The notes: generated by a model not told the origin, from the letters alone. Counted from the first letter of the stretch, positions 32,950 through 63,989 are shown. The stretch: 64,000 nt of DNA from Bacteroidia bacterium (GCA_019695295.1 JAIBAH010000011.1:2956-66955), one strand, 5' to 3'. Numbers and translations: made by a program.

Positions 32950-34251
32950 ATGAAAGCCTTACAATTAATCCGGGAATGTATTGATACTCAAAATCCTGTG
33001 CTCGACCTTGGCTTCTGCGGACTGAAGGATGAAACGCTCGCAGCAGGCTCTCAGACGGATATTGCACTTCGGAAATGCACTCATGTAAAAACCCTCATAC
33101 TCAGCAATCAATGGCAGGACTGGATACACTATCAACGAATTCAGAGTAAAAATAAAGGGAGAAGAAATGTATTTTCACAGCCACCTCCGGCTATTGCTGA
33201 ACTTACAGGCCTTGAAACGCTGATTTTATCCGGGGAGAATGCAAGCCGCGAAAGGGGGAAAATCCGTGATATGCAATTTATTTCAAACCTCCCCAATCTT
33301 CAGTACCTAGACCTTTCTTACAACAAAATAGCGGAAATTAAAGGAGTTGAGAATCTTTCGAAACTGAAGTTTCTTGCGCTCAATGAAAATTATATTTCAA
33401 CAATTTCCGGGCTGGATTCACTTTCTTCTCTGGAATATCTTTACCTTCATGGCAATAAACTAAAAACAACAGAGGGACTCCAGGCTTTAAGCAATTTAGG
33501 CTCGCTTCATCTATCCAACAACAAAATCAAAGTAGTTTCCGGACTGGAGAATCTGAGGAATCTCAGGAATTTTGCTGTATTTTATAATCAAATTGCTACA
33601 ATCTCAGGACTTTCCACCCTCGTTTCTCTGGAAGAGTTAAACCTATCAAGTAATAAGATAGTAAAGATATCCGGACTGGAATCACTCACCGGATTACAAA
33701 AACTGTATCTTTCTGACAATGAAATTACTGAAATACAGGGTCTGGAAAACCTCCTTCATTTACAAAGGCTTTATCTTTACAGTAACCGGCTTACTTCCCT
33801 TAAAGGACTCGAACATTTGCTTGAACTGAATGACCTTTCGGTATTTCAAAATCAGCTTTCTTCAATCATTGGAATAGAGAATCTGAAAAACCTGGAAAGT
33901 CTGTCGATTTCTCAAAATCAGATTACTTCGATTCTGGGCTTTGAAAAAATGACCGGACTAAAAAACCTGAACCTTCACACCAATCAGATTTCAGTCATTG
34001 AGGAAGCGGATAAATTACCTCAACTCCAACAACTCAACCTGTCCAAAAATAAAATTATAAGCCTGAAGCCCCTGATTCCGCTGCTGAAAAGAACAGAGAA
34101 CCCGCTTTCCATCATCTCCGGAGGCGCATTTTCTGCTCATGGTATCCGGATCAAGGATAATCCCTGTCCTTTGCCTCCTGTGGATATACTGAAAAAAGGA
34201 AATCAGTCCGTAATAGAATGGATTGAAAATGAATCGTTTTCCACAGACTGA
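32950..34251 (+). CDS. cytoplasmic leucine-rich repeat protein (about 13-14 repeats of 22 aa)
   Basis: There is no signal peptide. The repeated unit is L..L..L.LS.N.I..I.GLE.L, and a C-terminal cap reads IRIKDNPCPLPPVDILKKGNQSVIEWI. Confidence 0.85.
   Translation: MKALQLIRECIDTQNPVLDLGFCGLKDETLAAGSQTDIALRKCTHVKTLILSNQWQDWIHYQRIQSKNKGRRNVFSQPPPAIAELTGLETLILSGENASRERGKIRDMQFISNLPNLQYLDLSYNKIAEIKGVENLSKLKFLALNENYISTISGLDSLSSLEYLYLHGNKLKTTEGLQALSNLGSLHLSNNKIKVVSGLENLRNLRNFAVFYNQIATISGLSTLVSLEELNLSSNKIVKISGLESLTGLQKLYLSDNEITEIQGLENLLHLQRLYLYSNRLTSLKGLEHLLELNDLSVFQNQLSSIIGIENLKNLESLSISQNQITSILGFEKMTGLKNLNLHTNQISVIEEADKLPQLQQLNLSKNKIISLKPLIPLLKRTENPLSIISGGAFSAHGIRIKDNPCPLPPVDILKKGNQSVIEWIENESFSTD
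33200..34075 (+). repeat. 66-bp periodic coding repeats (LRR units)
   Basis: The DNA shows recurring ...ctggaaaa(c/t)ct... and tt(a/t)tctt(t/a)c.aacaa(a/t)at... units in phase with the 22-aa LRR. The repeats are coding, not CRISPR. Confidence 0.7.
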
Positions 34252-34343
34252 CCGGTACCCCAAAAACCAAAATCTGATTGAGTATTTCAATTACTATCCG
34301 AAATAGTTTTTATTCAATATCGTAATTATTTCCTGATTTTCTT

Positions 34344-34351
34344 TACTTTTG
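34344..34351 (+). promoter_or_regulatory. putative -7 box (TAnnTTTG)
   Basis: TACTTTTG lies 26 nt upstream of the ATG at 34377. Confidence 0.4.
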
Positions 34352-34376
34352 CATTCAGGATTAAAAAAATGATTTT

Positions 34377-36668
34377 ATGAAACAATACAGAATATCGGCA
34401 CTGCTTTTTCTTTTGATGATATCAGGAATGATATTTCCGGTTTTGGCACAGCAAAATGTAGGAATCGGCACCGTCAATCCTAACCCTAAAGCAAAACTTC
34501 ATATCGTTTCGAATAATTCCGGGATTCTTGTTCCGAGGCTTACCGCAGCACAACGGGCGGCAATGAACCCCAACGGTATCAGTGACGCAGGTATTCTGGT
34601 ATTTGATTCTTTGGATCAGCATTTTTACTATTATAATTCCATCCAGAATCAGTGGAATCCCATTCCGGATTTAGACTGGATAATCGCCGGAGCGGACCAG
34701 TATTCCGGGGTTCCGGGCAATGTTGGGATTGGGGTCGCGGCCCCTTCTGCAAAACTCCATGTAAATGGAAGTGTACGTTTTCAGGGGCTGGGAAATGCTG
34801 GGCTGAATGATACCGCTGTTTTGGTTACTGACCTTAACGGCAATGTAATGTTAAGAAATTTACCCCTCAATGTCTGGGATGGAGACGACATCAATGACGC
34901 TGACGCTGACCCGCTCAATGAAATGAATACGGCTATTTTTTATGACCCGCTTACCAATACAATCGCTATTACCGATGGTAACGGAACCCTTACCGCAACC
35001 ATTTCCAATCTCGGTATTCAGAATATTCAGGCGGGAGCAGGACTTTCCGGAATCACCGCCGGCAATACCGTAACGCTGAATGTAAATGCAAATAACGGGC
35101 TGTATGTGGACCCTGTTTCAGATGAGGTAAAATTAGGAGGCGCACTTGTTGAAAATACTACGGTTGGAATCGGTAACTATCAGATGTACTGGAACCTGAA
35201 CGGAACCGGCAATTTTGAAATTCAGAATAACGGAGTTCCCACCCTGACAGTAACCAATTACAGTAACATCGGGGTTAATAATCCGCTCCCCAATACGAAT
35301 GCAATTGTGGATATTAATTCAACCACTAAAGGAATTCTTCTTCCAAGAATGACCACTATCCAGAGAGATAATATTCTTCCTCCTCCCATTGGGTTGATTA
35401 TTTACAACACCGATGAGAATATGCCTCAGCATTATAACGGAACCTGCTGGTTAAATATGTATCAGCCCAGCTGTGACAACTGTGATTTTACCATTGCGCT
35501 GAGTGATACTTTTGGTATTATTACCCACACCCTGAACGATACCGTTACAACGACCGTAACCATCACCCAAACTTCAGGACCTCCCGCTGCAATTAATCTC
35601 TATTATCTGCAGAATTTACCCATGGGAACTTCCATTTATTTTAATAATTATGTAATTACCGGAGGTACAGGTACTTCTACCTTAACGGTCGCTTCCAATA
35701 TTTTTGCCACTCCCGGAATTTATCCCGTGGCTATCCAGGCTTTATGTGGAACAACCCTGAAAACCAAAATGTTTTACGTTCAGATAGACTCCTGTTACAA
35801 GGTGTATATAGATACGGCATTCACCAACTATGACCTTCAGGTAATCAACAGCCTGCCTTCCAATGTACCTATCTGTGTAATCGCAACGGTTCAGCCGAAT
35901 GGTAAAGTATATGGAGACAGTCTTCCTGCATTTACAACCGGCAATTTACATCCTCAGTCCAGCGTGGGAATTATCAATATGGGAGAGATATACGGAAGCG
36001 GAGGAGATGGAGGGGACCTGGCTCTGCTCAATATCCCGCCCACAAGCGTAGGGAATCCCGGAGAAGATGGCACACATGCGATTGACCTGACAGTAAAATC
36101 CACGCTGAACAATAACGGATTTATTTTCGGTGGCGGAGGCGGAGGCGGCTCTATTGGCTGGGCTTTATCTTTCTCTATCCCGATTCCTTTTTCGCCTCCG
36201 GTTACTTTCGGGGTTGGTCTGGGTGTCGGTGGAGGCGGCGGCGCTCCCAATGGATTAGGTGGAGCTATCTCCAATGTAAATTTCACATTAGGTCTTCTGG
36301 ATGCCGGAAATGACGCTACCGGCGGACTAAACGGAGCCGGCGGTCAGGGAGGAGTGGAAAATATTCCTATCTCTATTCCATTGTTTGCAGGAGCTTCTAT
36401 TACCGCCCAACCCAATGCTTTTGGGGGAGATGGCGGGGGATACGGACTCCCCGGAGGCAACGGAAGCATTAGTATAAGCCTTTCAGCGACCCTGCCTTTA
36501 ATCGGCAATATTTCTTTGGGTACTTACCCCAATCCTCCCTACAGCGGGGGCATTATCCCTCCGGGTGGCGTAGCCGGTTATGCCATAAAACGAAATGGCA
36601 ATGCGCTTACCGGACTTCCGGACGGATATTATCAGGTATTCCAGATCCGGGGTCAGGTAGGGCCTTAG
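34377..36668 (+). CDS. secreted protein with a duplicated N-terminal module and a glycine-rich C-terminal region; function unknown
   Basis: It has a signal peptide (…IFPVLAQQ). A duplicated module is seen: GILVPRLTAAQRAAM...GILVFDS...YYYN and GILLPRMTTIQRDNI...GLIIYNTD...HYNG. The last ~250 aa are Gly-rich (GGGGGGGSIGW, GVGGGGGAPNGLGG). No T9SS CTD is recognisable. Confidence 0.6.
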   Translation: MKQYRISALLFLLMISGMIFPVLAQQNVGIGTVNPNPKAKLHIVSNNSGILVPRLTAAQRAAMNPNGISDAGILVFDSLDQHFYYYNSIQNQWNPIPDLDWIIAGADQYSGVPGNVGIGVAAPSAKLHVNGSVRFQGLGNAGLNDTAVLVTDLNGNVMLRNLPLNVWDGDDINDADADPLNEMNTAIFYDPLTNTIAITDGNGTLTATISNLGIQNIQAGAGLSGITAGNTVTLNVNANNGLYVDPVSDEVKLGGALVENTTVGIGNYQMYWNLNGTGNFEIQNNGVPTLTVTNYSNIGVNNPLPNTNAIVDINSTTKGILLPRMTTIQRDNILPPPIGLIIYNTDENMPQHYNGTCWLNMYQPSCDNCDFTIALSDTFGIITHTLNDTVTTTVTITQTSGPPAAINLYYLQNLPMGTSIYFNNYVITGGTGTSTLTVASNIFATPGIYPVAIQALCGTTLKTKMFYVQIDSCYKVYIDTAFTNYDLQVINSLPSNVPICVIATVQPNGKVYGDSLPAFTTGNLHPQSSVGIINMGEIYGSGGDGGDLALLNIPPTSVGNPGEDGTHAIDLTVKSTLNNNGFIFGGGGGGGSIGWALSFSIPIPFSPPVTFGVGLGVGGGGGAPNGLGGAISNVNFTLGLLDAGNDATGGLNGAGGQGGVENIPISIPLFAGASITAQPNAFGGDGGGYGLPGGNGSISISLSATLPLIGNISLGTYPNPPYSGGIIPPGGVAGYAIKRNGNALTGLPDGYYQVFQIRGQVGP

Positions 36669-49302: not shown

Positions 49303-49311
49303 AAATTTATG

Positions 49312-49393
49312 TGCGGTTGGGGGGACTCGAACCCCCAAGCCTTGCGACACAGGCTTCTGAGACCTGCACGGTTACCAGTTTCGCCACAACCGC
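49312..49393 (-). tRNA. tRNA-Leu (anticodon CAG), class II with a long variable arm
   Basis: The minus strand reads GCGGTTG..., with acceptor stem GCGGTTG/CAACCGC. The anticodon stem CAGGT/GCCTG has loop CTCAGAA, giving anticodon CAG. The T arm is GGGGG-TTCGAGT-CCCCC, the discriminator is A, and CCA is not encoded. Confidence 0.85.
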
Positions 49394-49550: not shown

Positions 49551-50735
49551 TCAGGTTTTTATTTTGATGTCATTCTGATTCATCCAGTCATAAATACTGA
49601 TTCGCTGAATAGCAGCAGCCATAAGTGAAGGAAACTGATCAGGAGTACAGGCAAAACAGGGAATATCCATACCCGCAAGAATTCCGGCATTCCGCGTATC
49701 GTAAAAAGGAGAACCTTCATCGTTCAGCGCAAGCAAAGTAATAAAATTCACTCCGGAGCTTTTGATTTCGGCTACTCTGCGGAGCATTTGTTTTTCATCC
49801 CCTCCTTCGTATAAATCCGTAATTAATATTAAAATTGTGTCATCAGGCTTAGTAATAAGTGTCTGACAATACGCCAGGGCCTTATTAATATCTGTTCCTC
49901 CGCCCAGTTGTACCCCGAAAAGAATATCGACCGGGTCTTTTATATTCTCTGTCAAATCCGCTACCGAGGTATCAAACACTACCATTCGTGTATTCAATGC
50001 GGGTAAAGAAGCAAGGACTGCCCCAAACACCCCGGAATATACAACAGAAGAGCCCATAGAACCACTTTGATCTATACATAAAATGATGTTTTTATGAACC
50101 GATTGCCCGCGCTTACCACTCCCAATCAACCGTTCAGGAATAATCGTTTTATAAGCGTGTTGATAATGTTTCATATTCGCCTTAATCGTTTTATCCCAGT
50201 CAATCTCCCGGAATTTGGGCCGGTTGTTTCTCACGGAACGGCTTAAAGCACCTTTGACGGCTTGTTTGGTAGGATTTGTTAGTTTCTCCTCGAGTTGTTT
50301 TACCAGTTTCTGAATGATTACCCTCGCCGACTCTTTTACTTTCTGCGGCATTGTACGGCTCAGGGACATCAGCGTAGTTACCAGTTCAATATTTACTTCT
50401 ACTGTTTCCAGAAATTCGGGTTCTGAAAGCAGCTCTTCCACTCCCAGCCTGTCCATTGCGTCTTTTTGAAGCATGGAGACGACCGTGGAAGGGAAGTATT
50501 TCTGAATATCTCCAAGCCACCGGTTCACTTTTGGAGATGATGAGCCTAACCCTCCCCTTCTGTCGGAATCATACAAAGCATCAAGGCTATCACATACCCC
50601 CTGAAGATTCCTTTCGCCTTCAGACTCCTGATCGCCCTCATTTCCCGGATTACTTTTCAGGTCAATAGAGTTACCGGCATCCGATTGCCCTCCTAAAACA
50701 AGTTTCCACCGCTGAAATTTATTCTTATCAAGCAT
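49551..50735 (-). CDS. vWA-domain protein (CoxE/YehP-like), third gene of the AAA_5-DUF5682-vWA cassette
   Basis: The C-terminal vWA has MIDAS residues ILCIDQSGSM, ...GGGTDINKAL and LITDLYEGG. The N-terminal ~190 aa are helical and acidic. Confidence 0.8.
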   Translation of the reverse strand: MLDKNKFQRWKLVLGGQSDAGNSIDLKSNPGNEGDQESEGERNLQGVCDSLDALYDSDRRGGLGSSSPKVNRWLGDIQKYFPSTVVSMLQKDAMDRLGVEELLSEPEFLETVEVNIELVTTLMSLSRTMPQKVKESARVIIQKLVKQLEEKLTNPTKQAVKGALSRSVRNNRPKFREIDWDKTIKANMKHYQHAYKTIIPERLIGSGKRGQSVHKNIILCIDQSGSMGSSVVYSGVFGAVLASLPALNTRMVVFDTSVADLTENIKDPVDILFGVQLGGGTDINKALAYCQTLITKPDDTILILITDLYEGGDEKQMLRRVAEIKSSGVNFITLLALNDEGSPFYDTRNAGILAGMDIPCFACTPDQFPSLMAAAIQRISIYDWMNQNDIKIKT

Positions 50736-50784
50736 ATTTTTTTATTTATTTTTCAGATAGGTCTGTTTAAAAAAAAGAAAAGCA

Positions 50785-53058
50785 TTATCCTTGTACCGGT
50801 TTATAAATCAGGTCTGTCCATTCTTTAAACGCGGATTCTATCAAGTTTGCATTTTCAGTATTAAGGGATACGGATTTTTCGGCTGCTACCGAATTGGGAT
50901 TTGCCTTTACTTTTTGCTCAGTCATCAGCATATTCATGATTTTTTGGCGCTCAGGTACAGAAAACCGGCTGAATACCTTACGCATTACAGCCACATACTC
51001 TATAAACAGATTTTCTTTGAGTCCATGAAGCCATGCATCAATCACAGAGAGAATATCCGGATTATAAAGCAGAATCGTCACAGACTCCATCAGAAATCCA
51101 TCCAGCCACCGCATAGAAAACTGCGTATCCATTCCGGACGAAAGCGCAGCGGATAAACAGATACGGGTTTTTTCGATAGGGATTTTCCCGGAATCATTCA
51201 GAATTCTCACACTTCCTCCGGCGATTTTACCATCTACTCCCTGCAATTCCACAATTTTATCCATCATTTCAAACCATTGAGCAGAAAATTCAGGGTTTCC
51301 TAAAAGAATCATGACTTCATGCACCCTTTTTATTCTGCCCCATATATCATTCGAAGCCTCAGCATCAAGAGAAACGCACAGGTAAGGAAGAGAAATACAG
51401 ATACGCGGAATAATTTCATCTATCAGCTCCCGGACGGTTTCCAAATCCGTTTTATAGATATCCGTAGTAGAATACCTTGAGATACTCACCAAATCCGGTA
51501 AAACATCCATCAGTGAGAAAATATCTCTCGACTGAGTAGCCAGATTTTTAATTTTTTTCAATAGTACTCCGTTCAGCTTAGGAAGTTCGGCCCTCAGGGT
51601 ATCCTTGAGCAGTTTGGTTAATTCTGAAAGGTCCGATGAAGAATGAATTCTGTTGGCAACCAGATTCGATACAGCATCATAAACTGTATTACCCCAAACC
51701 CCTGCTTCAATGATGGCCATTTCCATCTCAGGTTTCCATTTCAGGGTCCAGTTCTCTTCTGAGCCAAGCCGTTTATTATGATCCGAATACTTTTTCTTTT
51801 CAGCCCATTTTATCTCTAAAAGTGACATACGGTGTAAGAACCGGCTTTTTTCCAGCCCTCTTGGCTCCCTTAAATCGAGTTTAACCTCTGATTTTCCGGG
51901 CGTTCCCCAGTATGCCATCATCCGGAGTTTTTTAAGCTGCTGCTCCAGGTCATTTCTCAGGGGTGAATTTTTGAGCTCATTGGGGACTGCTCCCATTTTG
52001 GTTCCAATAATCAATTCTTTTTCGATAATCTGAACCGTTTCAGGATAGCCTCCTCCAAAAATCGTAGTTGCAGACTCCATCATATCCTGTAATCCCGGAA
52101 TAGCCTGCTCCCTGATAATGGCAAGTGTATTTGCCAGTCGGACAGCTTCGATAATATGTGCTGAGGAAGCGTCCATTTGCTCCTGGCGAAGCAATCCTGC
52201 TGCCCTTGTCATCCATAAATTCAGTACTTTTTCCCGTTTATTTTTGAAAAGCATATCATACCAGGCAGGAGAAACTACCCCTGCCCCATATCCGGAAGAA
52301 GTCGAAAGACGTTCATAAGTCCAGGGAATCCAGGTATAATTTACGGGGACTTTTTTGAGTTTTTTCAGCAACTTCTCGTCTTCTTTGGCTGTCTCCGTAT
52401 AAGAAGGCAAAGCCGGTGTATGCCACGCACCACAGACAATCGCTATATTCTGATAATTATCCCCGATAGTCTCCCGGATTGTCGTACGCATTTTGGCTTC
52501 TCTCAACTCCGTTTCATAAGACTCTTTAAAGTTTAATTCTGAACGCAAGGCCGTCATCAATTCCATGATAGCCTGAAAAGCAGGCTCTTGCCCGCCTTGT
52601 TTTTCTATTACTTCTTCCCACCATCTTTCACCGTCAGCATAGCCCGCAAGCCTTCCGATATACCCCAAAGGGTCATGCCGGATAGCAATATCGTCCGGGC
52701 TCTCCTCTTCTGAGTCGTCTTCTTTCCGGGGCGAATGAGTAAGTGCAAGCCAGTTTTCCTTGGGTAAATCAAAGCACCGGAGATGAATATTATTTTTAAG
52801 GCAATAGGAAACCGCCTGCCATTCCGGAGAGAATTCCGCAAAAGGATAATAACTAGCTGCCGCAGGCTGATCCGGATTATATATCAAAAGGGCAACCGGC
52901 GGTTTCATTTTTTTATGCTGCACAATTTCCAGTGCGTCCCTTATATCCGAAGGCATTTCAAGCAGTACCGCATCGGGCTTTATCTTTTTCAGCGCCTCCA
53001 CCAGATTGCGGGAACTGCCCGGGCCGTGATGTCTTATACCAAGATAATGAATTTTCAT
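50785..53058 (-). CDS. DUF5682-family (YehM-like) protein, function unknown
   Basis: It encodes 757 aa. The N-terminus MKIHYLGIRHHGPGSSRNLVEAL...AVLLEMPSD matches what I recall as the conserved start of DUF5682/YehM proteins. It sits between the AAA_5 and vWA genes. Confidence 0.6.
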   Translation of the reverse strand: MKIHYLGIRHHGPGSSRNLVEALKKIKPDAVLLEMPSDIRDALEIVQHKKMKPPVALLIYNPDQPAAASYYPFAEFSPEWQAVSYCLKNNIHLRCFDLPKENWLALTHSPRKEDDSEEESPDDIAIRHDPLGYIGRLAGYADGERWWEEVIEKQGGQEPAFQAIMELMTALRSELNFKESYETELREAKMRTTIRETIGDNYQNIAIVCGAWHTPALPSYTETAKEDEKLLKKLKKVPVNYTWIPWTYERLSTSSGYGAGVVSPAWYDMLFKNKREKVLNLWMTRAAGLLRQEQMDASSAHIIEAVRLANTLAIIREQAIPGLQDMMESATTIFGGGYPETVQIIEKELIIGTKMGAVPNELKNSPLRNDLEQQLKKLRMMAYWGTPGKSEVKLDLREPRGLEKSRFLHRMSLLEIKWAEKKKYSDHNKRLGSEENWTLKWKPEMEMAIIEAGVWGNTVYDAVSNLVANRIHSSSDLSELTKLLKDTLRAELPKLNGVLLKKIKNLATQSRDIFSLMDVLPDLVSISRYSTTDIYKTDLETVRELIDEIIPRICISLPYLCVSLDAEASNDIWGRIKRVHEVMILLGNPEFSAQWFEMMDKIVELQGVDGKIAGGSVRILNDSGKIPIEKTRICLSAALSSGMDTQFSMRWLDGFLMESVTILLYNPDILSVIDAWLHGLKENLFIEYVAVMRKVFSRFSVPERQKIMNMLMTEQKVKANPNSVAAEKSVSLNTENANLIESAFKEWTDLIYKPVQG

Positions 53059-53112
53059 ATTAGAAAAAAACTGAAGAAATGGACAGAAATAACAAAAAAT
53101 ATAAAAAACTGC

Positions 53113-54192
53113 TTATTTGAATTCCTTGCAGGCTCTGTATAAATCTTTCCAGTTTTCACGCTCTTTTACCACTGTTTCCAGATACTCATTCCATACTACT
53201 GTATCCTGAACCGGGTCTTTAATAATCGCACCAATCAGGCCTGCAGCCAAATCTGCGGCTTTGAGTCTGCCGTCGCTGAAATAAGCAGCCAGAGACTGAC
53301 CCTGATTAATCACTGAAATCGCCTCTGCAGAGCTCAAAGTACTGCTCGGTTGCTTGAGTTTGGTTTTGCCGTCAATGGTTTTGCCACTTCTCAACTCCCG
53401 GAAAATGGTAACGAGCCTGCGGATTTCCTCCACTGCCGGTTTTTCTGCAGGAAGATTGAGCGAAATACCGATTTTTTCAACCCTTGTCTGAACGATGGTA
53501 ATTTCTTCTTCGAGCGATGAAGGCAATGGCAAAACCACTGTATTAAAACGCCGTTTTAAAGCGGCAGAAAGGTCATTTACCCCCTTATCCCGGTCATTGG
53601 CAGTAGCGATTACATTAAAGCCCCGCTGCGCCTGAACCTGAAAATTGAGTTCAGGTACGGGAAGAACTTTTTCAGACAAAATTGTAATCAGCGTATCCTG
53701 AACGTCCGCCGGAATCCTTGTCAGTTCTTCAACCCTGACCGTTTTTCCATCCTGCATTCCTTTCATCATAGGACTGGAAACAAGTGCATTTACAGAAGGG
53801 CCTTCAGCAAGCAGTTTTGCATAATTCCAGGAATAGCGTATCTGATCTTCGCTCGTTCCGGCTGTACCCTGAATCAATAAAGAGGAGTCTCCACTGATAG
53901 CAGCGGTAATATGCTCAGAAACCCAGCTTTTAGCAGTACCCGGTACCCCCATCAGTAATAATGCCCTGTCCGTAGCCAGGGTAGCCACCGCAATCTCCAT
54001 CAGTCTTTTATTTCCAATATACTTGGGTTCGATTATCATCCCGTTGGGTAATTTCCCTCCGAGCAAATATAATAATACCGACCAGGGAGAAAGCACCCAA
54101 TTTTCAGGTTTTTGTCTGGTGTCTGCTTTTTTGAGTGCTTCAAGTTCCTCTGCATATTGCACTTCGGCCTGTGGTCTTAGAATATGATTCAT
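53113..54192 (-). CDS. AAA_5-type (MoxR/dynein-related, YehL-like) ATPase
   Basis: Walker A is LLMGVPGTAKS and Walker B is TVRVEELTR. Sensor and arginine regions are VIATANDRD and LKRRFN. It encodes 359 aa. Confidence 0.85.
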   Translation of the reverse strand: MNHILRPQAEVQYAEELEALKKADTRQKPENWVLSPWSVLLYLLGGKLPNGMIIEPKYIGNKRLMEIAVATLATDRALLLMGVPGTAKSWVSEHITAAISGDSSLLIQGTAGTSEDQIRYSWNYAKLLAEGPSVNALVSSPMMKGMQDGKTVRVEELTRIPADVQDTLITILSEKVLPVPELNFQVQAQRGFNVIATANDRDKGVNDLSAALKRRFNTVVLPLPSSLEEEITIVQTRVEKIGISLNLPAEKPAVEEIRRLVTIFRELRSGKTIDGKTKLKQPSSTLSSAEAISVINQGQSLAAYFSDGRLKAADLAAGLIGAIIKDPVQDTVVWNEYLETVVKERENWKDLYRACKEFK

Positions 54193-54226
54193 ATTTTTTT
54201 AAAAATTGTTATTTTAAATTTCTGCA

Positions 54227-54234
54227 CAAAAATA
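54227..54234 (-). promoter_or_regulatory. putative -7 box (TAnnTTTG) for the AAA_5-DUF5682-vWA operon
   Basis: The minus strand reads TATTTTTG, 35 nt upstream of the ATG at 54192. Confidence 0.4.
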
Positions 54235-54508: not shown

Positions 54509-55090
54509 ATGATATTATCAATCGTGGGGTACGGACATCCGACACTGCGTAAAAAGGCGTCTCCTGTCAATCCTGATTATCCCGGTTTGCAAAAGTTGAT
54601 AGCAAACATGTTTGAAACGATGTATAAAGCGCATGGAGTGGGTTTGGCAGCTCCTCAGGTGAACGAATCGGTCAGAGTATTTATAATAGACAGTACTCCG
54701 ATGGTTGATGAGCCTGAAGAAGGACAGGAACCCGAAACTCCGGTCAAAAAAGTATTCATCAATGCCAGAATATTGTCTGAGACCGGAACAGAATGGGGGT
54801 TTAACGAAGGATGTCTGAGCATTCCGGAAGTAAGAGAAGAAGTAAAAAGAAAAGATACGATTGTGATTCATTATTTCGATGAAAATTTTCAGGAAAAAAC
54901 TGAAACCTACAACGGAATTGTAGCGAGAATTATACAGCATGAATATGATCATATCGAAGGTATATTATTTATAGACAGAATCTCGGCATTCAGAAGGCAA
55001 CTTCTTAAAAACCGCCTGCTGAGAATACAAAAAGGAGATATCAGAACGGGGTATCCGATGAAATTCGCAAACGTAACGAAAGTAAAATAA
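54509..55090 (+). CDS. def: peptide deformylase
   Basis: The three signature motifs GVGLAAPQV, EGCLSIP and HEYDHIEG are present. Confidence 0.95.
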   Translation: MILSIVGYGHPTLRKKASPVNPDYPGLQKLIANMFETMYKAHGVGLAAPQVNESVRVFIIDSTPMVDEPEEGQEPETPVKKVFINARILSETGTEWGFNEGCLSIPEVREEVKRKDTIVIHYFDENFQEKTETYNGIVARIIQHEYDHIEGILFIDRISAFRRQLLKNRLLRIQKGDIRTGYPMKFANVTKVK

Positions 55091-57828: not shown

Positions 57829-58881
57829 ATGAAAATACTCATTTCTTTTGATGATACAGGAAGTATGTCATCTTTGCGCAAAGTAGTCAGGGAAAAATGT
57901 ACGGAATTCGTAAACCACCTTTTTGACCGCTTCAAAGGCTTGCAAATCGGCGTAATTATCCATAATGACTATTGCGATGCCGATACTATTCAACAACTGG
58001 ATTTTACTTATGACAGAAAACAGATTACCGAATTCATCAACCGGAACTCCTCTATGGGAGGCGGGGATTCTGATGAATGTTACGAATATGTACTTCAGCT
58101 TGCCACCGAAATGAACTGGGATGACACCGACAAAAAAATTCTCATCATGATTGGGGACTGCAATCCTCATCCTGTAGGATATAAACACAATGGAAAAACC
58201 TATAATATAGACTGGAAGCAGGAGTCCCAGAAACTGGCAGATTTAGGTGTGCAGATTTATGCAATTCAGGCGATGGGAAACCGTTCCTCTTCCAAATTCT
58301 ATGAAGGGATGAGCAAAATCACCGGAGGCGTAAAACTGGACCTTACTCAGTTTAAAAATATCCCGCAATACCTCACCGCAATTACCTATCAGCAGGAAGG
58401 AAAACTGGAAGAGTATGAAAACTCTGACGAAAGTTTCAAAAAAGATTATATGCTCAGAAATATGTTCTCCAAACTCAAACGCGGTGCGGTTTCCATGGAG
58501 GAGATTGATGAAGACAAAATCGAAATGCTTTCCCGTTTTCAGGTAATGAACGTTGAATATGACTGTCAGATTAATGACTTTGTAAGAGAACACGGACGCT
58601 CTTTCAAGGCTGGTTCAGGATATTATCAGCTGGCAGGCAGCGAAAAAGTGCAGCCTCACAAAAAAATCGTTTTTGTACACAGGGAAACCGGAGAAATGAC
58701 GGACAACGCTGATTTCTGCCGTGGCAAACTGGGAATTCTGGGTGAACCCGGAACGGTAACGGTCTCCCCCAAAAAGTGTAAAGACGCGCTGGCCGAGTAT
58801 GACGTATTTATTCAAAGTACCTCCTACAACCGAAAACTGGATGCTGGAACCAAGTTCCTCTATGAACTGGAAAGAAGTTAA
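57829..58881 (+). CDS. cytoplasmic vWA-domain protein with an uncharacterised C-terminal domain
   Basis: There is no signal peptide. The vWA starts at residue 1 (MKILISFDDTGSM is the MIDAS DxTGS), followed by MGGGDSDECYEY and ILIMIGDCNPH. The ~160-aa C-terminal domain is not recognised. Confidence 0.65.
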   Translation: MKILISFDDTGSMSSLRKVVREKCTEFVNHLFDRFKGLQIGVIIHNDYCDADTIQQLDFTYDRKQITEFINRNSSMGGGDSDECYEYVLQLATEMNWDDTDKKILIMIGDCNPHPVGYKHNGKTYNIDWKQESQKLADLGVQIYAIQAMGNRSSSKFYEGMSKITGGVKLDLTQFKNIPQYLTAITYQQEGKLEEYENSDESFKKDYMLRNMFSKLKRGAVSMEEIDEDKIEMLSRFQVMNVEYDCQINDFVREHGRSFKAGSGYYQLAGSEKVQPHKKIVFVHRETGEMTDNADFCRGKLGILGEPGTVTVSPKKCKDALAEYDVFIQSTSYNRKLDAGTKFLYELERS

Positions 58882-58895
58882 TCCCCTGAATTATC

Positions 58896-60134
58896 ATGTC
58901 CTTAAAAACTCAGACAGACCAGTTTCTTTACAGGCGTTTTAGTGCGGATGACCCGGAGAAATTAAAAGAACTTGAAACCCTCGCTCAAAAAGAGGGGGTA
59001 AATATATTGCAGTATGAATCCTTGCTCAGAAGCGGGTACAGTAATTTTCCGGATGTCAATCCGCTCAGAGGAAAAATCTCCCGTTTGTCTTTTACGTGCG
59101 ACTACACCGGGCTGAAAATTCCCTATTATCTCTATGTCCCACCGGGATATTCTCCAGGGAACCCGTCTCCCCTCACCCTGATTGCACATGGGGGGAATAA
59201 TGCCATGTCTCCCGACGAAGCCCTGGATACAGCGCTGGACTATATCCGGGCATACTCTCCTATCGGAGTAAATGGTAATCATATTCTGGCAGCACCGGCA
59301 AGTTCCAGGGGATGGGGTTCAGTTGGGGTAGGAAATCTCTTTTCCCTCCGCTCATTACTCACCCGAACCTTTCATATTCATCCTGACAAAATCCACATTA
59401 CGGGTCAATCGATGGGTGGACATCTTGCCTATCGTATGGCGCTTTGGTTCTCTGACCGTTTTGGGGCAATTTCACCACACAGCGGAGGGTATGATTATGT
59501 ATCTCAGGATATTATCGTGAATCTGCTGGATTCCAAAGCCTATTCTGTATTCGGTGAATATGAGCCTTACGGAATCAACGAAGCCAATAAAATCAATGAG
59601 CAATGGCTGAAAAAACAGCAGACAAACTGGGTTTTTGTAGAGAAAAAAGGCGGAGGACACAGCATTTATCCGGATGAGATGAACAACATCATCCGGTTTT
59701 TCAATCAGTATCCCCGAAATCTCTATCCTCCAAAAGTAAGGATGAAAATCAGGGGAAGCATGATTTTTGAAGGAGAAAGTCACCCAAACTGGGGCAATGA
59801 AATGATTAAACCCATTCAGGGCCGAACCTTCTCTTCCCGCTCCCGTTACTGGCTCAGAATCATGAAAGGCATAGACATGAATCAGTATATGGAATTATCC
59901 GGTGAAATCCGGAACGGAAATATTATCTCTGTTCAGCAAAAAAATGTTTCGGAATTTGAGTTGTGGTTACACCCGAAAATGGTAGACTGGAGTCAAAAAG
60001 TAAAAGTAATCCTTAACGGAAAAACCATTTACGAGGAACTTCCCTCCGAAAATCTCAAAGAGATGCTCACACATGTCAAAGAATATGACGACAGGGGGCG
60101 GATATTCTATCAAAAACTGGTTTTTAATGCATGA
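58896..60134 (+). CDS. alpha/beta hydrolase (esterase/peptidase-like)
   Basis: It has the nucleophile elbow ITGQSMGGH, an oxyanion-type IAHGGNN and a candidate catalytic His in GGGHSIYPDE. There is no signal peptide. It starts 14 nt after the vWA stop. Confidence 0.7.
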   Translation: MSLKTQTDQFLYRRFSADDPEKLKELETLAQKEGVNILQYESLLRSGYSNFPDVNPLRGKISRLSFTCDYTGLKIPYYLYVPPGYSPGNPSPLTLIAHGGNNAMSPDEALDTALDYIRAYSPIGVNGNHILAAPASSRGWGSVGVGNLFSLRSLLTRTFHIHPDKIHITGQSMGGHLAYRMALWFSDRFGAISPHSGGYDYVSQDIIVNLLDSKAYSVFGEYEPYGINEANKINEQWLKKQQTNWVFVEKKGGGHSIYPDEMNNIIRFFNQYPRNLYPPKVRMKIRGSMIFEGESHPNWGNEMIKPIQGRTFSSRSRYWLRIMKGIDMNQYMELSGEIRNGNIISVQQKNVSEFELWLHPKMVDWSQKVKVILNGKTIYEELPSENLKEMLTHVKEYDDRGRIFYQKLVFNA

Positions 60135-62476
60135 TTCAGGTTTTTACCACTTTTTATAATAAAAAAGAGATGATTCAATATTTCTCCCAAAGTTGTCTGT
60201 TGATTGTCTTTTATCTGCTTTCGTTTTTGCCGGTTTACAGTCAGCCCGGGATTATGACGATGAAAGAAACAGGAACTGGTCCTTCTTCTGCTTTATATAG
60301 CCTTATAGCCTCCTCTGACAATCATTTTTACTGTGCCGGATACATTACAGATTCCACGCCTTCTCAAACGAATGGACATCTGATAAAACTGAATGAAAAA
60401 GGCGAAATTCTTTGGGAGAAAATCCTTGACAAAGGCCATAATGAAAAGGTAATTTCGATTTTTTCCGATAATCAGGGGGGCGTTTTTTCCCTTATGTCCC
60501 ATTCTCCAGATTCCCTTTCGCCCTGGAAAAACCGGAAAACCTTTCTGATTCATTTTGACGAAAACGGGAATCTTCTTTCCGAAATGGCGCAGGAGAAAGA
60601 AAATGCACTTTTTCCGCCGGTTCAGCAATTGTCCGGAGGCGATTTTTTATCTCTGGTGTATCATAAAAATGCTGCGGATTCTGCCGCAAACCCGGTTCCC
60701 GGACTAGTGAAACTGAATGCAAAGGGAGAAATTCTCTGGAAGAAAAGCTATCTGCCGGATTCCGGAATTGTCAGTGAAGCAACTTTCATGCGCTTACCCA
60801 ATGAGGAAATTCTGTTTATCATGGCAGTGAGTTTTCCGCCGGATAGTATGGATTTCTCAAAGTACTGGAAATGGAATCAGGAAGGAATTTACCTGATCCG
60901 GTGTAAAAATGACGGGACTGAAATCAGCCGGAAATATCTTCCGCCATTCTCAAAAGTCTATATTATCCAACCCACAAAAGACGGGAATTTTATAGCGGCA
61001 GGAAGTAAAAATGTGGATGAAGACTCTGATACAGAGATTGATATTTTCATCCGGAAAATCGCCATTTCAGGGGAAACGATATGGGAAAAACAAATTCATG
61101 TACAAAAATATGACTCTCCTATGGAAATTTCAGAGTTATCCTCCGGCAATATTATACTTTCCGCTTATTGTGGAGGCAGCTGGGTGACAGCCTCTGCGCA
61201 CACCGCTTTGTTTGAATTGAGCGGAAAGGGAGAAACTCTTTGGAGCAAAGTTTTCCGTGACGGAAATTGTATCAATCAACTCGTTCAGAAAAAGGACAGT
61301 ACTTACTTTGGAGTGGGTTTATTTTCTGAAACTTATGTACAGAAAGAGGATGATTCCTATTCTTTTTCCCATGATAAATCCTTCGAAAGCAAATCCCGTT
61401 TGTATCATCTCAGCAGCAATCAGGTATTATGGCAGAAACATCTTTCCACTTTCAATAGTTCGGAGCAGGCTTATTGTATCGAAAAAAGCAAAGACAACGG
61501 ATTTTACCTTTCCGGGATAGACTTTAACGGAAACCATATTTTCATCCGGAAGATAGACGAAAACGGGAATACGTTATGGGTCAACAGTATGGGCACATGG
61601 AGTGCTTCGATGGAAGTACCTTCAGGCGTCACAGAACTGGCTGAAGGTGGCTGCATTGCTTTCAATAATAAAGATGATTTGTATCGTTTTTCTGAATCCG
61701 GAGAAATGCTCTGGAAAAACAAAAACCTTGACTTTAAGCATATTTCCGGAATTAAACCCCATAAGAAAAACACTTTTTTTGTAGCGGGTTCGGTTTGGTT
61801 GAATTACCCGGAAAATAATTTATGGTGGGGAATTACAGGAGAAGACGGCAACCTCATTTCAGAGAAAGAAAAACACTTTTCCTTGCCGGTAAAGGTCTGG
61901 GATATAGAAAAATGCAGGGATGAAGGATTTCTTCTGGGATGTGAAGCAGGCGAGCCGGGAGAAAATATCATTCAGCTTGTGAAAATTGACAAGGAGGGGG
62001 AATACGAATGGAATGAGCTTTACCCGATGGGAAAATCCTCTGAAGCCCGAAGCGTAGCCGAGTTAAAATCAGGAGGGTACGCAATTGGAGGGATTTCCTA
62101 TAATCCGCAGGAGAAATACCGGGCGGTTTTGATAAAAACGGACTCCAAAGGAAAGAAAGAATGGGATTTAAAACTGGTGAAAACAGAGAGCGAATTATTT
62201 ACGAGCGTAATCACCGTTGATACCGCAGGCTATATTTTGCTTGCAGCAACCCATAAGTTCAATAGCTATAAAGGAGAACAGGAAATTTATGTCACAAAAA
62301 TATCAGAAAAGGGAGAAATTATCTGGGAAAAATTCCTCTGTGGCGCAGGGTCTCATCAGGTGGGTGGGATTGCCCTTACGCATGACAATCATATTCTGAT
62401 TACGGGCTATTCCAGTTATCATCAAACCCATAAAAGCGAACCGGAAATTTTGCTGGTGAAGGTAAAAAATGACTGA
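60131..62476 (+). CDS. exported repeat protein (about 13-14 beta-propeller-like blades), paralogue of the caspase N-domain
   Basis: G(E/K).(L/I)W.K-type repeats recur every ~50-55 aa. The ATG at 60131 overlaps the hydrolase stop (ATGA). The signal-like segment starts at the second Met (ATG 60170: MIQYFSQSCLLIVFYLLSFLPVYSQ), so 60170 is an alternative start. Confidence 0.65.
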   Translation: MIQVFTTFYNKKEMIQYFSQSCLLIVFYLLSFLPVYSQPGIMTMKETGTGPSSALYSLIASSDNHFYCAGYITDSTPSQTNGHLIKLNEKGEILWEKILDKGHNEKVISIFSDNQGGVFSLMSHSPDSLSPWKNRKTFLIHFDENGNLLSEMAQEKENALFPPVQQLSGGDFLSLVYHKNAADSAANPVPGLVKLNAKGEILWKKSYLPDSGIVSEATFMRLPNEEILFIMAVSFPPDSMDFSKYWKWNQEGIYLIRCKNDGTEISRKYLPPFSKVYIIQPTKDGNFIAAGSKNVDEDSDTEIDIFIRKIAISGETIWEKQIHVQKYDSPMEISELSSGNIILSAYCGGSWVTASAHTALFELSGKGETLWSKVFRDGNCINQLVQKKDSTYFGVGLFSETYVQKEDDSYSFSHDKSFESKSRLYHLSSNQVLWQKHLSTFNSSEQAYCIEKSKDNGFYLSGIDFNGNHIFIRKIDENGNTLWVNSMGTWSASMEVPSGVTELAEGGCIAFNNKDDLYRFSESGEMLWKNKNLDFKHISGIKPHKKNTFFVAGSVWLNYPENNLWWGITGEDGNLISEKEKHFSLPVKVWDIEKCRDEGFLLGCEAGEPGENIIQLVKIDKEGEYEWNELYPMGKSSEARSVAELKSGGYAIGGISYNPQEKYRAVLIKTDSKGKKEWDLKLVKTESELFTSVITVDTAGYILLAATHKFNSYKGEQEIYVTKISEKGEIIWEKFLCGAGSHQVGGIALTHDNHILITGYSSYHQTHKSEPEILLVKVKND

Positions 62477-62523
62477 GCTGTTTTGATTTAAAATAATCCC
62501 TTACAGAACGATTAAAAATCTCA

Positions 62524-62531
62524 TATCTTTG
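62524..62531 (+). promoter_or_regulatory. putative -7 box (TAnnTTTG) for the MBOAT gene
   Basis: TATCTTTG lies 34 nt upstream of the start at 62565. Confidence 0.4.
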
Positions 62532-62564
62532 CTGTAAGATTACCAGTAGCAAATAAATACTTTT

Positions 62565-63989
62565 TTGGTTTTTAGCAGTATCATATTTTTACTTTATTTC
62601 TTACCGCTTTTTTTGTGGGTATATCTGCTTGTACCCAAATCCCTGAAAAATGCCGTTATCCTTATAGGAAGTTGTCTGTTTTATGCCTGGGAGTCCCCTC
62701 AGTTTGTGTTCGTAATCCTTACCACAACGTGGTTAGATTATCATTTTGTACGTCAAATGGACAAAGTAGAAAGCCCCTTTCTGAGAAAAATCTGGCTGGT
62801 TTTTTCTTTAAGCCTGAACCTTGGGTTATTATTTTATTTTAAATATTGTAATTTTTTTGTAGAAAATCTCAGCGAAATGCTTTCGGAAGGCTCCGGAACA
62901 GTAACTCCCTGGATAAAACTTGCGCTTCCCATAGGCATTTCATTCTATACCTTTGAAAGCATTACTTATGTAGTGGATGTTTACAGAAAAATCCATAAAC
63001 CGCTTCGGAATTTCTGGTTGTATCAGGTTTATATCATGCTATTTCCCAAACTAATAGCAGGCCCGGTGATCCGTTATCATGAGATATCAGAACAGTTGAC
63101 TAACAGAATCGAAACCGCTGAGCTAAGACTTTATGGCTTGTACCGTTTTATCATCGGACTTTCCAAAAAAGTATGGATTGCCAATACAATGGCGGGGTAT
63201 GCGGCGGATATTTATAGTCATTCTCCTGATAAAATCAGTACTTTGGGAGCGTGGACTGGCGCACTCGCTTATACGTTTCAAATTTATTTTGATTTTTCGG
63301 GTTATTCAGATATGGCAATTGGGATTGGAAAGATGATGGGATTTCGTTTTCCCGAAAATTTCAATAATCCCTATTCTTCCCTGAGTATTACCGAGTTTTG
63401 GAAACGGTGGCACATCACACTCGGAGCGTGGATGCGCAATTATTTATATATCCCTCTAGGGGGAAATCAAGTAACCCCTCCTTACCGCATTTATGTGAAT
63501 CTTATGGTGGTCTTTTTGATATCCGGATTCTGGCATGGAGCGGAATGGGCATTTGTCTTTTGGGGGCTGTATCATGGATTTTTTCTGATTGTGGAAAGGC
63601 TTTTTTTGCTGAAAATTCTCCAAAATTTACCAAAATTCGTGGGATTATTCTATGCTTTTTTGGTTGTAGTGATAGGCTTAGTATTTTTCAATCTGGAGGA
63701 AATTCCCAAAAGCATAGCATTTCTCAAAATAATGTTTGGGGAGGGCAAGCCTGATGCCTATCAATCCACAATGGATTTTATGTTCTTATTTTATTTCACT
63801 CTTGCCTTTCTATTCAGTTTTTGGATACTCCTTCCAAAAGGAAAAGCAATTCAGGAAGTCGTTTTTTCAGAAAAATACGGGTTTAAAGAACACGTTTTTG
63901 CATCCTTTCTCAGTTTTATTTTTTTAATCCTTTGCGCAGCCAAAATTACCGGCTCTGATTTTAATCCATTTATTTATTTCCGTTTCTGA
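62565..63989 (+). CDS. MBOAT-family membrane O-acyltransferase (AlgI/DltB-like)
   Basis: It is polytopic, with FDFSGYSDMAIG, FWKRWHITLGAWMRNY and the catalytic-His region FLISGFWHGAEW. The start codon appears to be TTG, with no in-frame ATG near the conserved MVFSS N-terminus. Confidence 0.9.
   Translation: MVFSSIIFLLYFLPLFLWVYLLVPKSLKNAVILIGSCLFYAWESPQFVFVILTTTWLDYHFVRQMDKVESPFLRKIWLVFSLSLNLGLLFYFKYCNFFVENLSEMLSEGSGTVTPWIKLALPIGISFYTFESITYVVDVYRKIHKPLRNFWLYQVYIMLFPKLIAGPVIRYHEISEQLTNRIETAELRLYGLYRFIIGLSKKVWIANTMAGYAADIYSHSPDKISTLGAWTGALAYTFQIYFDFSGYSDMAIGIGKMMGFRFPENFNNPYSSLSITEFWKRWHITLGAWMRNYLYIPLGGNQVTPPYRIYVNLMVVFLISGFWHGAEWAFVFWGLYHGFFLIVERLFLLKILQNLPKFVGLFYAFLVVVIGLVFFNLEEIPKSIAFLKIMFGEGKPDAYQSTMDFMFLFYFTLAFLFSFWILLPKGKAIQEVVFSEKYGFKEHVFASFLSFIFLILCAAKITGSDFNPFIYFRF

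Follow-up and report, generated by a model that had tools for sequence, protein, structure and literature searches.

What does a compact cassette of a MoxR ATPase, a DUF5682 protein and a vWA protein do? Such a cassette lies in a 64,000-nucleotide stretch of DNA from a Bacteroidia bacterium (GCA_019695295.1 JAIBAH010000011.1:2956-66955; hereafter the window), and an initial annotation, made from the sequence alone, had described it as a unit with no assigned function that resembles yehL-yehM-yehP of E. coli. The coordinates of the open reading frames (ORFs) agree with that description in giving three co-directional minus-strand genes of 359, 757 and 394 amino acids (aa), with gaps of 54 nt (MoxR/DUF5682) and 49 nt (DUF5682/vWA). 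Our analysis identifies it as a functional version, pared down to three genes, of the widespread Yeh-type system, of which DUF5682 is the signature component.

The first gene encodes an AAA_5-type MoxR ATPase (Pfam AAA_5, 5e-35), in which the Walker A (GVPGTAKS, residue 82) and Walker B (VRVEEL, 152) motifs named in the initial annotation are present together with sensor-1 (ATAN, 196) and an Arg-finger region (KRRF, 213). Among proteins of solved structure, the Midasin AAA domains are closest to it in sequence (2e-10). The second protein, which starts with MKIHYLGIRHHGPGSS at residue 1 and which the initial annotation had associated with DUF5682, matched Pfam PF18934 with 705.6 bits (cut-off 26; 1e-211) over residues 21-727 of 757 and profile positions 3-706 of 727. 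The third belongs to Pfam VWA_CoxE (1e-47) and has its vWA domain at aa 157-370 of 394. Its metal ion-dependent adhesion site (MIDAS), reported earlier as intact, is indeed complete, consisting of D222-x-S-x-S, T281 and D307 in the motifs DQSGSM (222), GGGTD (278) and ITDLYEGG (305). The helical region at the N-terminus of this protein has no Pfam model of its own, and no further domain follows vWA in the protein, which can be aligned with YehP over its whole length; no effector domain was present at its C-terminus and no variable effector at the cassette. Since none of the three proteins contains a hydrophobic segment, they are predicted to be soluble and cytoplasmic.

In BLASTP comparisons with E. 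coli, the MoxR ATPase was 41% identical to YehL over the full length (E 7e-84), the DUF5682 protein 25% identical to YehM over the N-terminal 519 residues (E 3e-36) and the vWA protein 33% identical to YehP (E 7e-71). The families, gene order and orientation match those of yehL-yehM-yehP(-yehQ) in E. coli K-12, and the sizes are 362/759/378 aa in E. coli against 359/757/394 aa in the window. As such, the resemblance reflects real homology. The yehLMP genes are single-copy and chromosomal in 5,337 of 5,426 complete E. coli genomes (98%), and the operon has been reported as one of those silenced by H-NS/Hha (PMC3686432). The statement that this operon is without a known function also held, as the literature on DUF5682, DUF5691, DUF4132 and yehL/M/P/Q/I yielded gene lists only and nothing on function.

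The two loci differ in their partners and spacing. In E. coli, YehQ (SWIM) is encoded downstream and YehI (DUF4132) and YehK upstream, whereas the window lacks these partners, and the yeh genes overlap or abut, whereas the window genes are separated by 49-54 nt. No homologue of YehQ, YehI or YehK was detected in the 64-kb window by tblastn (YehI E > 0.9), the SWIM and DUF5691 families gave no match there in a six-frame hidden Markov model (HMM) search, and no window ORF was classed as DUF4132. The absence of SWIM and DUF4132 was thus correctly noted in the initial annotation.

To which architecture the trio should be compared became apparent from the wider family. A search with DUF5682 gave more than 7,600 relatives, counted as clusters at 90% identity and many of them from Hymenobacter, and a pattern scan of one genome per species gave at least 600 stretches, at least 595 of which were confirmed to encode a relative. 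The gene context was surveyed in the best 80 loci of these confirmed stretches, with ORFs classified by seed-based iterated HMMs. These loci come from Bacteroidota, Cyanobacteria, Chloroflexota, Gammaproteobacteria, Acidobacteriota, Planctomycetota and others. The dominant architecture, found in 32 of the 80, is SWIM > DUF5691 > MoxR > DUF5682 > vWA, and DUF4132 follows downstream in 5 of these 32 five-gene loci (5/80 overall) and also occurs in E. coli. The usual partners named in the initial annotation, SWIM and DUF4132, were therefore real but incompletely described, since DUF5691 went unmentioned and the norm across phyla is SWIM and DUF5691 upstream, with DUF4132 only sometimes downstream. 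The assignment to SWIM is firm, given the invariant CxC...CxH signature of that family. The order MoxR > DUF5682 > vWA was observed in loci from at least 7 phyla, and 39 loci encode all three proteins at full length.

The five-gene clusters, which occur in Chitinophagaceae, Cyanobacteria, Chloroflexota, Acidobacteriota, Thiotrichales and a Citrobacter metagenome-assembled genome (MAG), are the closest relatives outside the window's clade. Their core order is identical and DUF5682 is 36-42% identical over the 80 loci, but SWIM and DUF5691 are absent from the available DNA of the window and its clade. The profiles of the five-gene SWIM (~440 aa) and DUF5691 families do not match YehQ, so the E. 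coli system forms a branch that has diverged, and the window lies nearer to the five-gene type. YehQ itself has 614 aa with two Pfam SWIM stretches. Because the Citrobacter MAG is of the five-gene type while E. coli diverges, two deep branches exist within Enterobacteria.

Besides the five-gene clusters, trio-only loci with uncut flanks comprise the window, a 62% identical relative (L002) and a locus of Phototrophicaceae, Chloroflexota (L074). At least 12 uncut loci, most of them from Saprospiraceae (Table 1), encode DUF5682 but no MoxR, vWA, SWIM or DUF5691 in the 10 kb to each side, as expected if DUF5682 carries its own activity; in these genomes either the components are dispersed or DUF5682 works by itself. 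In Hymenobacter operons, two SUKH/SMI1_KNR4 genes, DUF1963, DUF6985 and small unannotated genes stand between MoxR and DUF5682, and vWA is encoded at another position or beyond the range covered; the inserted families are immunity-protein-like. An Mrr endonuclease lies between MoxR and DUF5682 in one other locus, and Uma2 endonucleases are present in two cyanobacterial loci.

Whether the three-gene state is stable could be judged from the window's own clade. In L087 (80% identity), the trio is unchanged and again accompanied by def, the small ORF and LOG, and L002/L003 (62% identity) likewise have the identical trio, with def, small-ORF, LOG and SLT neighbours as in the window; the downstream side of the cassette differs between the window and L002. 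Further away, L088 (59%) keeps MoxR-DUF5682 followed by a metallophosphatase, L089 (52%) has a type IX secretion system (T9SS) cargo gene between DUF5682 and vWA with MoxR not adjacent, and L004/L006 (51%) have PDDEXK_9 and AAA_15/21 genes after DUF5682. In L004 and L006, these are an AAA-ATPase_like/PDDEXK_9 gene and an AAA_15/AAA_21 ATPase with a 330-aa partner, which form a defence-like pair. SWIM and DUF5691 were not found near the cassette in L087, L002, L088, L089 or L004/L006, so the SWIM-less state is a feature of the clade. The "minimal core" suggested in the initial annotation is borne out for this Bacteroidia clade as far as the available DNA extends, although the cassette is loosened or split at 59-51% identity; at 80% and 62% the trio is kept.

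Between the window and L087, dS (synonymous divergence) was saturated at 1.6-4.5, with dN (nonsynonymous divergence) of 0.026 for MoxR, 0.142 for DUF5682 and 0.099 for vWA, and the dN/dS ratios were 0.017, 0.088 and 0.022, respectively, compared with 0.013 for the essential def gene. MoxR is 96% identical between the two and the essential def product 91%. The trio is under strong purifying selection without sign of diversification, and DUF5682 of the window keeps every residue that is invariant in the family. Over the 39 full-length loci, the YehL-type MoxR is unusually conserved, with a mean pairwise identity across phyla of 0.73 (vWA, 0.63; DUF5682, 0.48), and the three proteins diverge in step, their pairwise identities being correlated at a Spearman coefficient of 0.83-0.85 (reached in 0 of 500 permutations). 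The three genes are inherited as a unit, while shared phylogeny alone could give such co-divergence.

We then asked what DUF5682 itself might be. AlphaFold modeled the full-length protein with a predicted local distance difference test (pLDDT) of 88 and a predicted template modelling score (pTM) of 0.77, and residues 1-360 with a pLDDT of 90 and a pTM of 0.89 as an alpha/beta domain with 7 strands. In the model this domain is followed by a small alpha/beta module and an all-alpha solenoid (Table 1), which is likely a protein-binding scaffold. Foldseek with the full-length model against the PDB gave only non-significant matches to karyopherin, AP-2 and designed helical-repeat proteins, dominated by the solenoid, and phmmer and hmmsearch with the protein and its profile gave no match to PDB sequences. 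Among 58 sequences, the invariant columns are G7-I-R-H10-H11-G-P-G14, E34, S77-P-E79-W80, R186-E187 and C209-G-A-W-H213.

The N-terminal domain is, with odds of roughly two in three, a TraB/TIKI-like domain and putative hydrolase. This reading, held with moderate confidence, rests on the AlphaFold model, the top Foldseek match, the collinearity of motifs and a weak profile-profile signal. The three top Foldseek matches of the domain in the PDB (7w5z_E, 8b6h_DQ and 8bqs_DQ) are one Tetrahymena complex IV subunit of 383-384 residues, the best of them with E 0.01 and a probability of 0.95. COXTT5, a 385-aa "TraB family protein", is the lone complex IV subunit of that size (PMC10060162). The TIKI superfamily is recognised by its parallel beta-sheet core together with a 2His/2Glu set and a basic residue that is conserved (PMC6254334), and the invariant residues of DUF5682 fit these hallmarks. 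From the alignments, H10/H11, H213, E34, E79/E187 and R186 would make up a 2His/2Glu/Arg-type set; they are invariant in the 58 sequences, conserved in YehM and aligned with motifs of YbaP/TraB, E. coli YbaP being our comparison protein for the TraB family. When the DUF5682 profile was compared by hhalign with a deep TraB profile of 94 diverse TraB/GumN representatives, the score was 26.3 (P 0.0044), and a permissive alignment of DUF5682 1-223 with TraB 32-262 paired both GxxH motifs, the beta2-Glu and R[N/E]xxM. Column-shuffled controls scored 14.7 +/- 2.4 on average with a maximum of 23.6, and none of 120 reached the real score (z ~4.8). A composite motif pattern, devised post hoc, was present in 86/86 DUF5682 proteins and 95/104 members of the YbaP (TraB) family, compared with 0 of 1,185 other ORFs and 0 of 1,720 shuffled sequences.

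A number of observations weigh against this reading. The best Foldseek match has a TM of only ~0.25, and its subunit (7w5z_E/8b6h_DQ) is very probably COXTT5, going by no more than a match in length. A YbaP profile did not reach 7w5z_E among PDB sequences, and no structure of EreA, ChaN, Bcr135, RRSP or HopBA1 was among the top 50 Foldseek matches. The Pfam model TraB_PrgY_gumN did not match DUF5682. Alignment of the DUF5682 profile by hhalign with the single YbaP sequence or a shallow YbaP profile (relatives at least 65% identical) was insignificant, although these runs still aligned all motifs collinearly. In comparison with the real score of 26.3, the reversed profile scored 22.0 and six unrelated real profiles 13.9-23.1, the highest being DUF5691, and the TraB/TIKI assignment is not statistically secure. 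We also considered the GIRHHG sequence as the RHG motif of a histidine phosphatase; the Sts-1 PGM domains appeared in the comparison at E ~2-3 with a probability of 0.12-0.13, and this reading was ranked below TraB/TIKI.

How the three proteins may work together can be proposed by analogy with studied MoxR-vWA pairs (listed in PMC7159879), in which the MIDAS of the vWA protein docks an acidic residue of a partner. By the same analogy, a MoxR hexamer would use ATP to remodel the docked partner. The dedicated partner would most likely be DUF5682 itself, because no other protein is a constant companion of the MoxR-vWA pair. MoxR and vWA would then switch, load or reset the active site of DUF5682, whose N-terminal domain would be a TraB/TIKI-type hydrolase (protease or esterase) and whose solenoid would bind a substrate or a partner, in full systems SWIM, DUF5691 and DUF4132. 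The latter three may act as accessory modules for sensing or regulation, which this lineage dispenses with or encodes elsewhere. We put the probability that the MoxR-vWA pair remodels or gates DUF5682 as an ATP-driven hydrolase machine at about 40%. The separation of the genes in clade members at 59-51% identity counts against it, since tight operon coupling is evidently not obligatory.

Other MoxR-vWA pairs serve client enzymes, and the neighbourhood of the system bears on whether this one does. When the non-core ORFs of the 80 loci were clustered, no non-core neighbour recurred beyond lineage-specific synteny, and no client enzyme recurred within 10 kb. The initial annotation had likewise seen no obvious client or effector beside the cassette; a lack of DUF5682 similarity, a lack of synteny or a recurrent client, any of which it would have taken as evidence against its proposal, was not found. 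In the window itself, DUF547, Pyr_redox_2 and Fer4 were considered as clients and set aside, as the tRNA separates them from the cassette and the 62% identical relative does not share them. A chelatase-like or maturation machine, in which DUF5682 as a metal or cofactor subunit (compare CobN/BchH with CobS-CobT/BchI-BchD, or CoxF with CoxD-CoxE) loads a distant client, is doubtful in our view. In its make-up, with a small AAA+ component, a vWA component and a third, large one, the trio does parallel chelatases, the vWA protein is of the CoxE family, and there is weak NCBIfam similarity to cobaltochelatase CobT, GvpN and MadB ATPases. In addition, the invariant site of DUF5682, rich in His, Glu and Asp, could bind a metal, and the system behaves as core genome in E. 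coli (5337/5426). The TIKI superfamily moreover includes the haem-binding ChaN and the metal-dependent Tiki (PMC6254334). However, CoxDE, NorQD and CbbQO adjoin their clients whereas none recurs here, the NCBIfam scores are far under their cut-offs, and nothing comparable to the SWIM and DUF5691 partners of the full system is known from maturation systems.

The same neighbourhoods speak to a role in conflict or threat sensing, in which MoxR and vWA would be thresholding chaperones and DUF5682 would serve as sensor, as effector or as both, perhaps as a TIKI-type protease acting on a host or invader target. A survey of MoxR-vWA conflict systems describes VMAP, iSTAND, FtsH and beta-propeller classes, and its text mentions neither SWIM nor YehL (PMC7159879); threat-sensing signalling by a MoxR-vWA pathway of the beta-propeller type, Esr, has been shown experimentally (PMC13622651). 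The three-component logic of the present system is that of these systems. Its patchy phyletic spread, together with the mean MoxR identity of 0.73, suggests horizontal spread, TIKI-fold toxins such as RRSP exist, and SUKH/SMI1_KNR4, DUF1963, Mrr and Uma2 genes inside some operons, as well as the PDDEXK_9 and AAA_15/21 genes that adjoin DUF5682 in L004/L006 and the few PADLOC matches among flanking genes, could be read in the same way. On the other hand, PADLOC-DB 2.0 gave no meaningful match for the trio (only DruE, with MoxR, at E 0.0095 and 11.8 bits, and none for DUF5682 or vWA), and the bpMoxR model scored 20.7 bits, under its 27-bit cut-off. Among 120 directly flanking proteins, no Pfam family occurred more than 3 times and most were housekeeping, and PADLOC matches among these proteins were scattered, with no defence family in more than 2; the window's own neighbours are def, LOG, SLT, a tRNA and redox genes. 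The vWA protein carries no effector domain and there is no variable effector, a scan of viral contigs gave no relative of the system, and the genes show purifying selection without diversification. The single-copy chromosomal presence of yehLMP in 98% of complete E. coli genomes is core-like, unlike a typical mobile defence system. Taken together, the lack of a recurrent client, the lack of PADLOC matches and viral copies and the near-universality in E. coli argue against both an ordinary maturation factor and a mobile defence island, and we regard the conflict role as unlikely.

That the cassette is a decaying remnant of a five-gene system, as the absence of SWIM and DUF5691 from the window and the fragmentation of the cluster in more distant clade members might suggest, is highly improbable and rejected on account of the strong purifying selection (dN/dS 0.02-0.09, with MoxR better conserved than the essential def product), with all frames intact and full-length, the family-invariant residues all kept and the trio conserved in relatives at 80% and 62% identity.

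The layout of the locus is given in Table 1. As stated in the initial annotation, tRNA-Leu flanks the cassette on one side and a 316-bp region on the other; the divergent gene beyond this region is def. The cassette's own TAnnTTTG box, also noted there, is present as TATTTTTG and is plausible as a promoter element of the Bacteroidota type. Over the whole window, TAnnTTTG shows no enrichment, occurring 82 times where 69 +/- 8 would be expected, and at a frequency near chance the TATTTTTG box gives positional evidence without statistical weight. The neighbours of the cassette in the window are def, LOG, SLT, tRNA-Leu, DUF547, Pyr_redox_2 and Fer4. The GC content over window positions 50001-54000 is 0.425-0.454, compared with a window mean of ~0.40 and a range of 0.356-0.478, and gives no clear compositional sign of recent transfer. 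The def gene was found within 10 kb of a DUF5682 system in three unrelated lineages, which chance could explain; it is adjacent and divergent in the window's clade, ~8.5 kb away in Hymenobacter, and present on both sides of the system in a Synechococcales MAG (L064). This proximity deserves attention in view of a possible TIKI-type protease domain with a role in N-terminal processing. Elsewhere in the window, a second vWA protein, unrelated to the cassette, heads a co-directional gene run that ends with an MBOAT acyltransferase, and a leucine-rich-repeat protein precedes an ORF without a Pfam match.

Table 1. Positions of the cassette, its neighbours and related loci (positions without a locus number are those of the window; L numbers designate other loci)
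Feature	Position	Strand	Remarks
MoxR ATPase ORF	53113-54192	minus	359 aa
DUF5682 ORF	50785-53058	minus	757 aa
DUF5682 N-terminal alpha/beta domain (~aa 1-355)	51994-53058	minus	putative TraB/TIKI-like hydrolase; AlphaFold model
DUF5682 small alpha/beta module (~aa 385-455)			AlphaFold model
DUF5682 C-terminal all-alpha solenoid (~aa 459-752)	50803-51684	minus	HEAT/ARM-like; model secondary structure
vWA ORF	49551-50735	minus	394 aa
TATTTTTG (TAnnTTTG) box	54227-54234	minus	candidate Bacteroidota-type -7 promoter; 34 nt before MoxR ATG
tRNA-Leu(CAG)	49311-49393	minus	downstream of cassette
Peptide deformylase gene (def)	54509-55090	plus	divergent, upstream of cassette
def	L087 2095-2676		
def	L002 7790-8371		
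def	L005 20909-21454		
def	L008 20449-21006		
def (two copies)	L064 4304-4900 and 19435-20010		Synechococcales MAG
Leucine-rich-repeat protein, then 763-aa ORF	32950-36668	plus	433 aa; ORF without Pfam match
Gene run headed by second vWA protein	57829-63989	plus	second vWA protein 350 aa
Esterase/alpha-beta hydrolase	58896-60134	plus	follows second vWA protein
781-aa ORF	60131-62476	plus	overlaps preceding esterase by 4 nt; no Pfam match
MBOAT acyltransferase	62565-63989	plus	ends the run
E. coli yehQ	L001 14101-15945		
Citrobacter MAG locus	L029		five-gene type
Defence-like pair	L004 3283-8108		also in L006
Hymenobacter inserts between MoxR and DUF5682	L005 7368-9972; L008 6839-9963; L028 6094-8582; L075 7550-9906		
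DUF5682-alone loci	L010, L015, L018, L020-L022, L033, L038, L043, L067, L080, L084		

The Yeh-type system spans many phyla and nearly all complete E. coli genomes (98%), and the searchable literature is silent on its function. What is added here is the canonical five-gene architecture and, within it, the trio as a constrained core that persists without SWIM, DUF5691 and DUF4132, together with the lack of any recurring client or defence context and a moderately supported idea of DUF5682 as a hydrolase. The window contributes a natural "minimal" variant rather than a new protein family, and the system is uncharacterised but known, not a new kind. These results turn a DUF-labelled operon into specific experiments that are doable in E. 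coli K-12.

Several known systems can be compared with the trio. Mg and Co chelatases consist of three subunits, including a large third subunit beside the AAA+ and vWA subunits, but DUF5682 is unrelated to that subunit, CobN/BchH. CoxD-CoxE, NorQ-NorD, CbbQ-CbbO and RavA-ViaA combine a MoxR/AAA_5-type ATPase with a MIDAS vWA protein (PMC7159879), as the cassette does, and its vWA protein is of the CoxE family, as in the client-linked maturation pairs; those pairs adjoin their client genes, whereas none is adjacent here or in the 80 related loci. With the TIKI/TraB/PrgY/GumN/erythromycin-esterase/ChaN superfamily, DUF5682 has in common the alpha/beta domain and the order and spacing of GxxH, beta-strand Glu, R[N/E]xxM and GxxH. 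It differs in an insertion of ~100 residues, a C-terminal extension of 400 residues and a first motif, RHHG, with two histidines, and the likeness is below Pfam detection with moderate statistical support. The ternary conflict systems (PMC7159879) and Esr (PMC13622651) are likewise built of MoxR, vWA and a conserved third protein, and the CoxE-like N-terminal region of the vWA protein is common to the conflict systems and the window. However, the third component here is DUF5682 instead of VMAP, iSTAND, FtsH or a beta-propeller protein, and the conflict systems fuse a variable effector to vWA whereas the window protein has no effector domain. We suggest, tentatively and below even odds, that MoxR, vWA and DUF5682 could constitute a fifth, undescribed MoxR-vWA ternary class with an ATP-gated TIKI/TraB-type hydrolase, of which the window trio would be the minimal unit.

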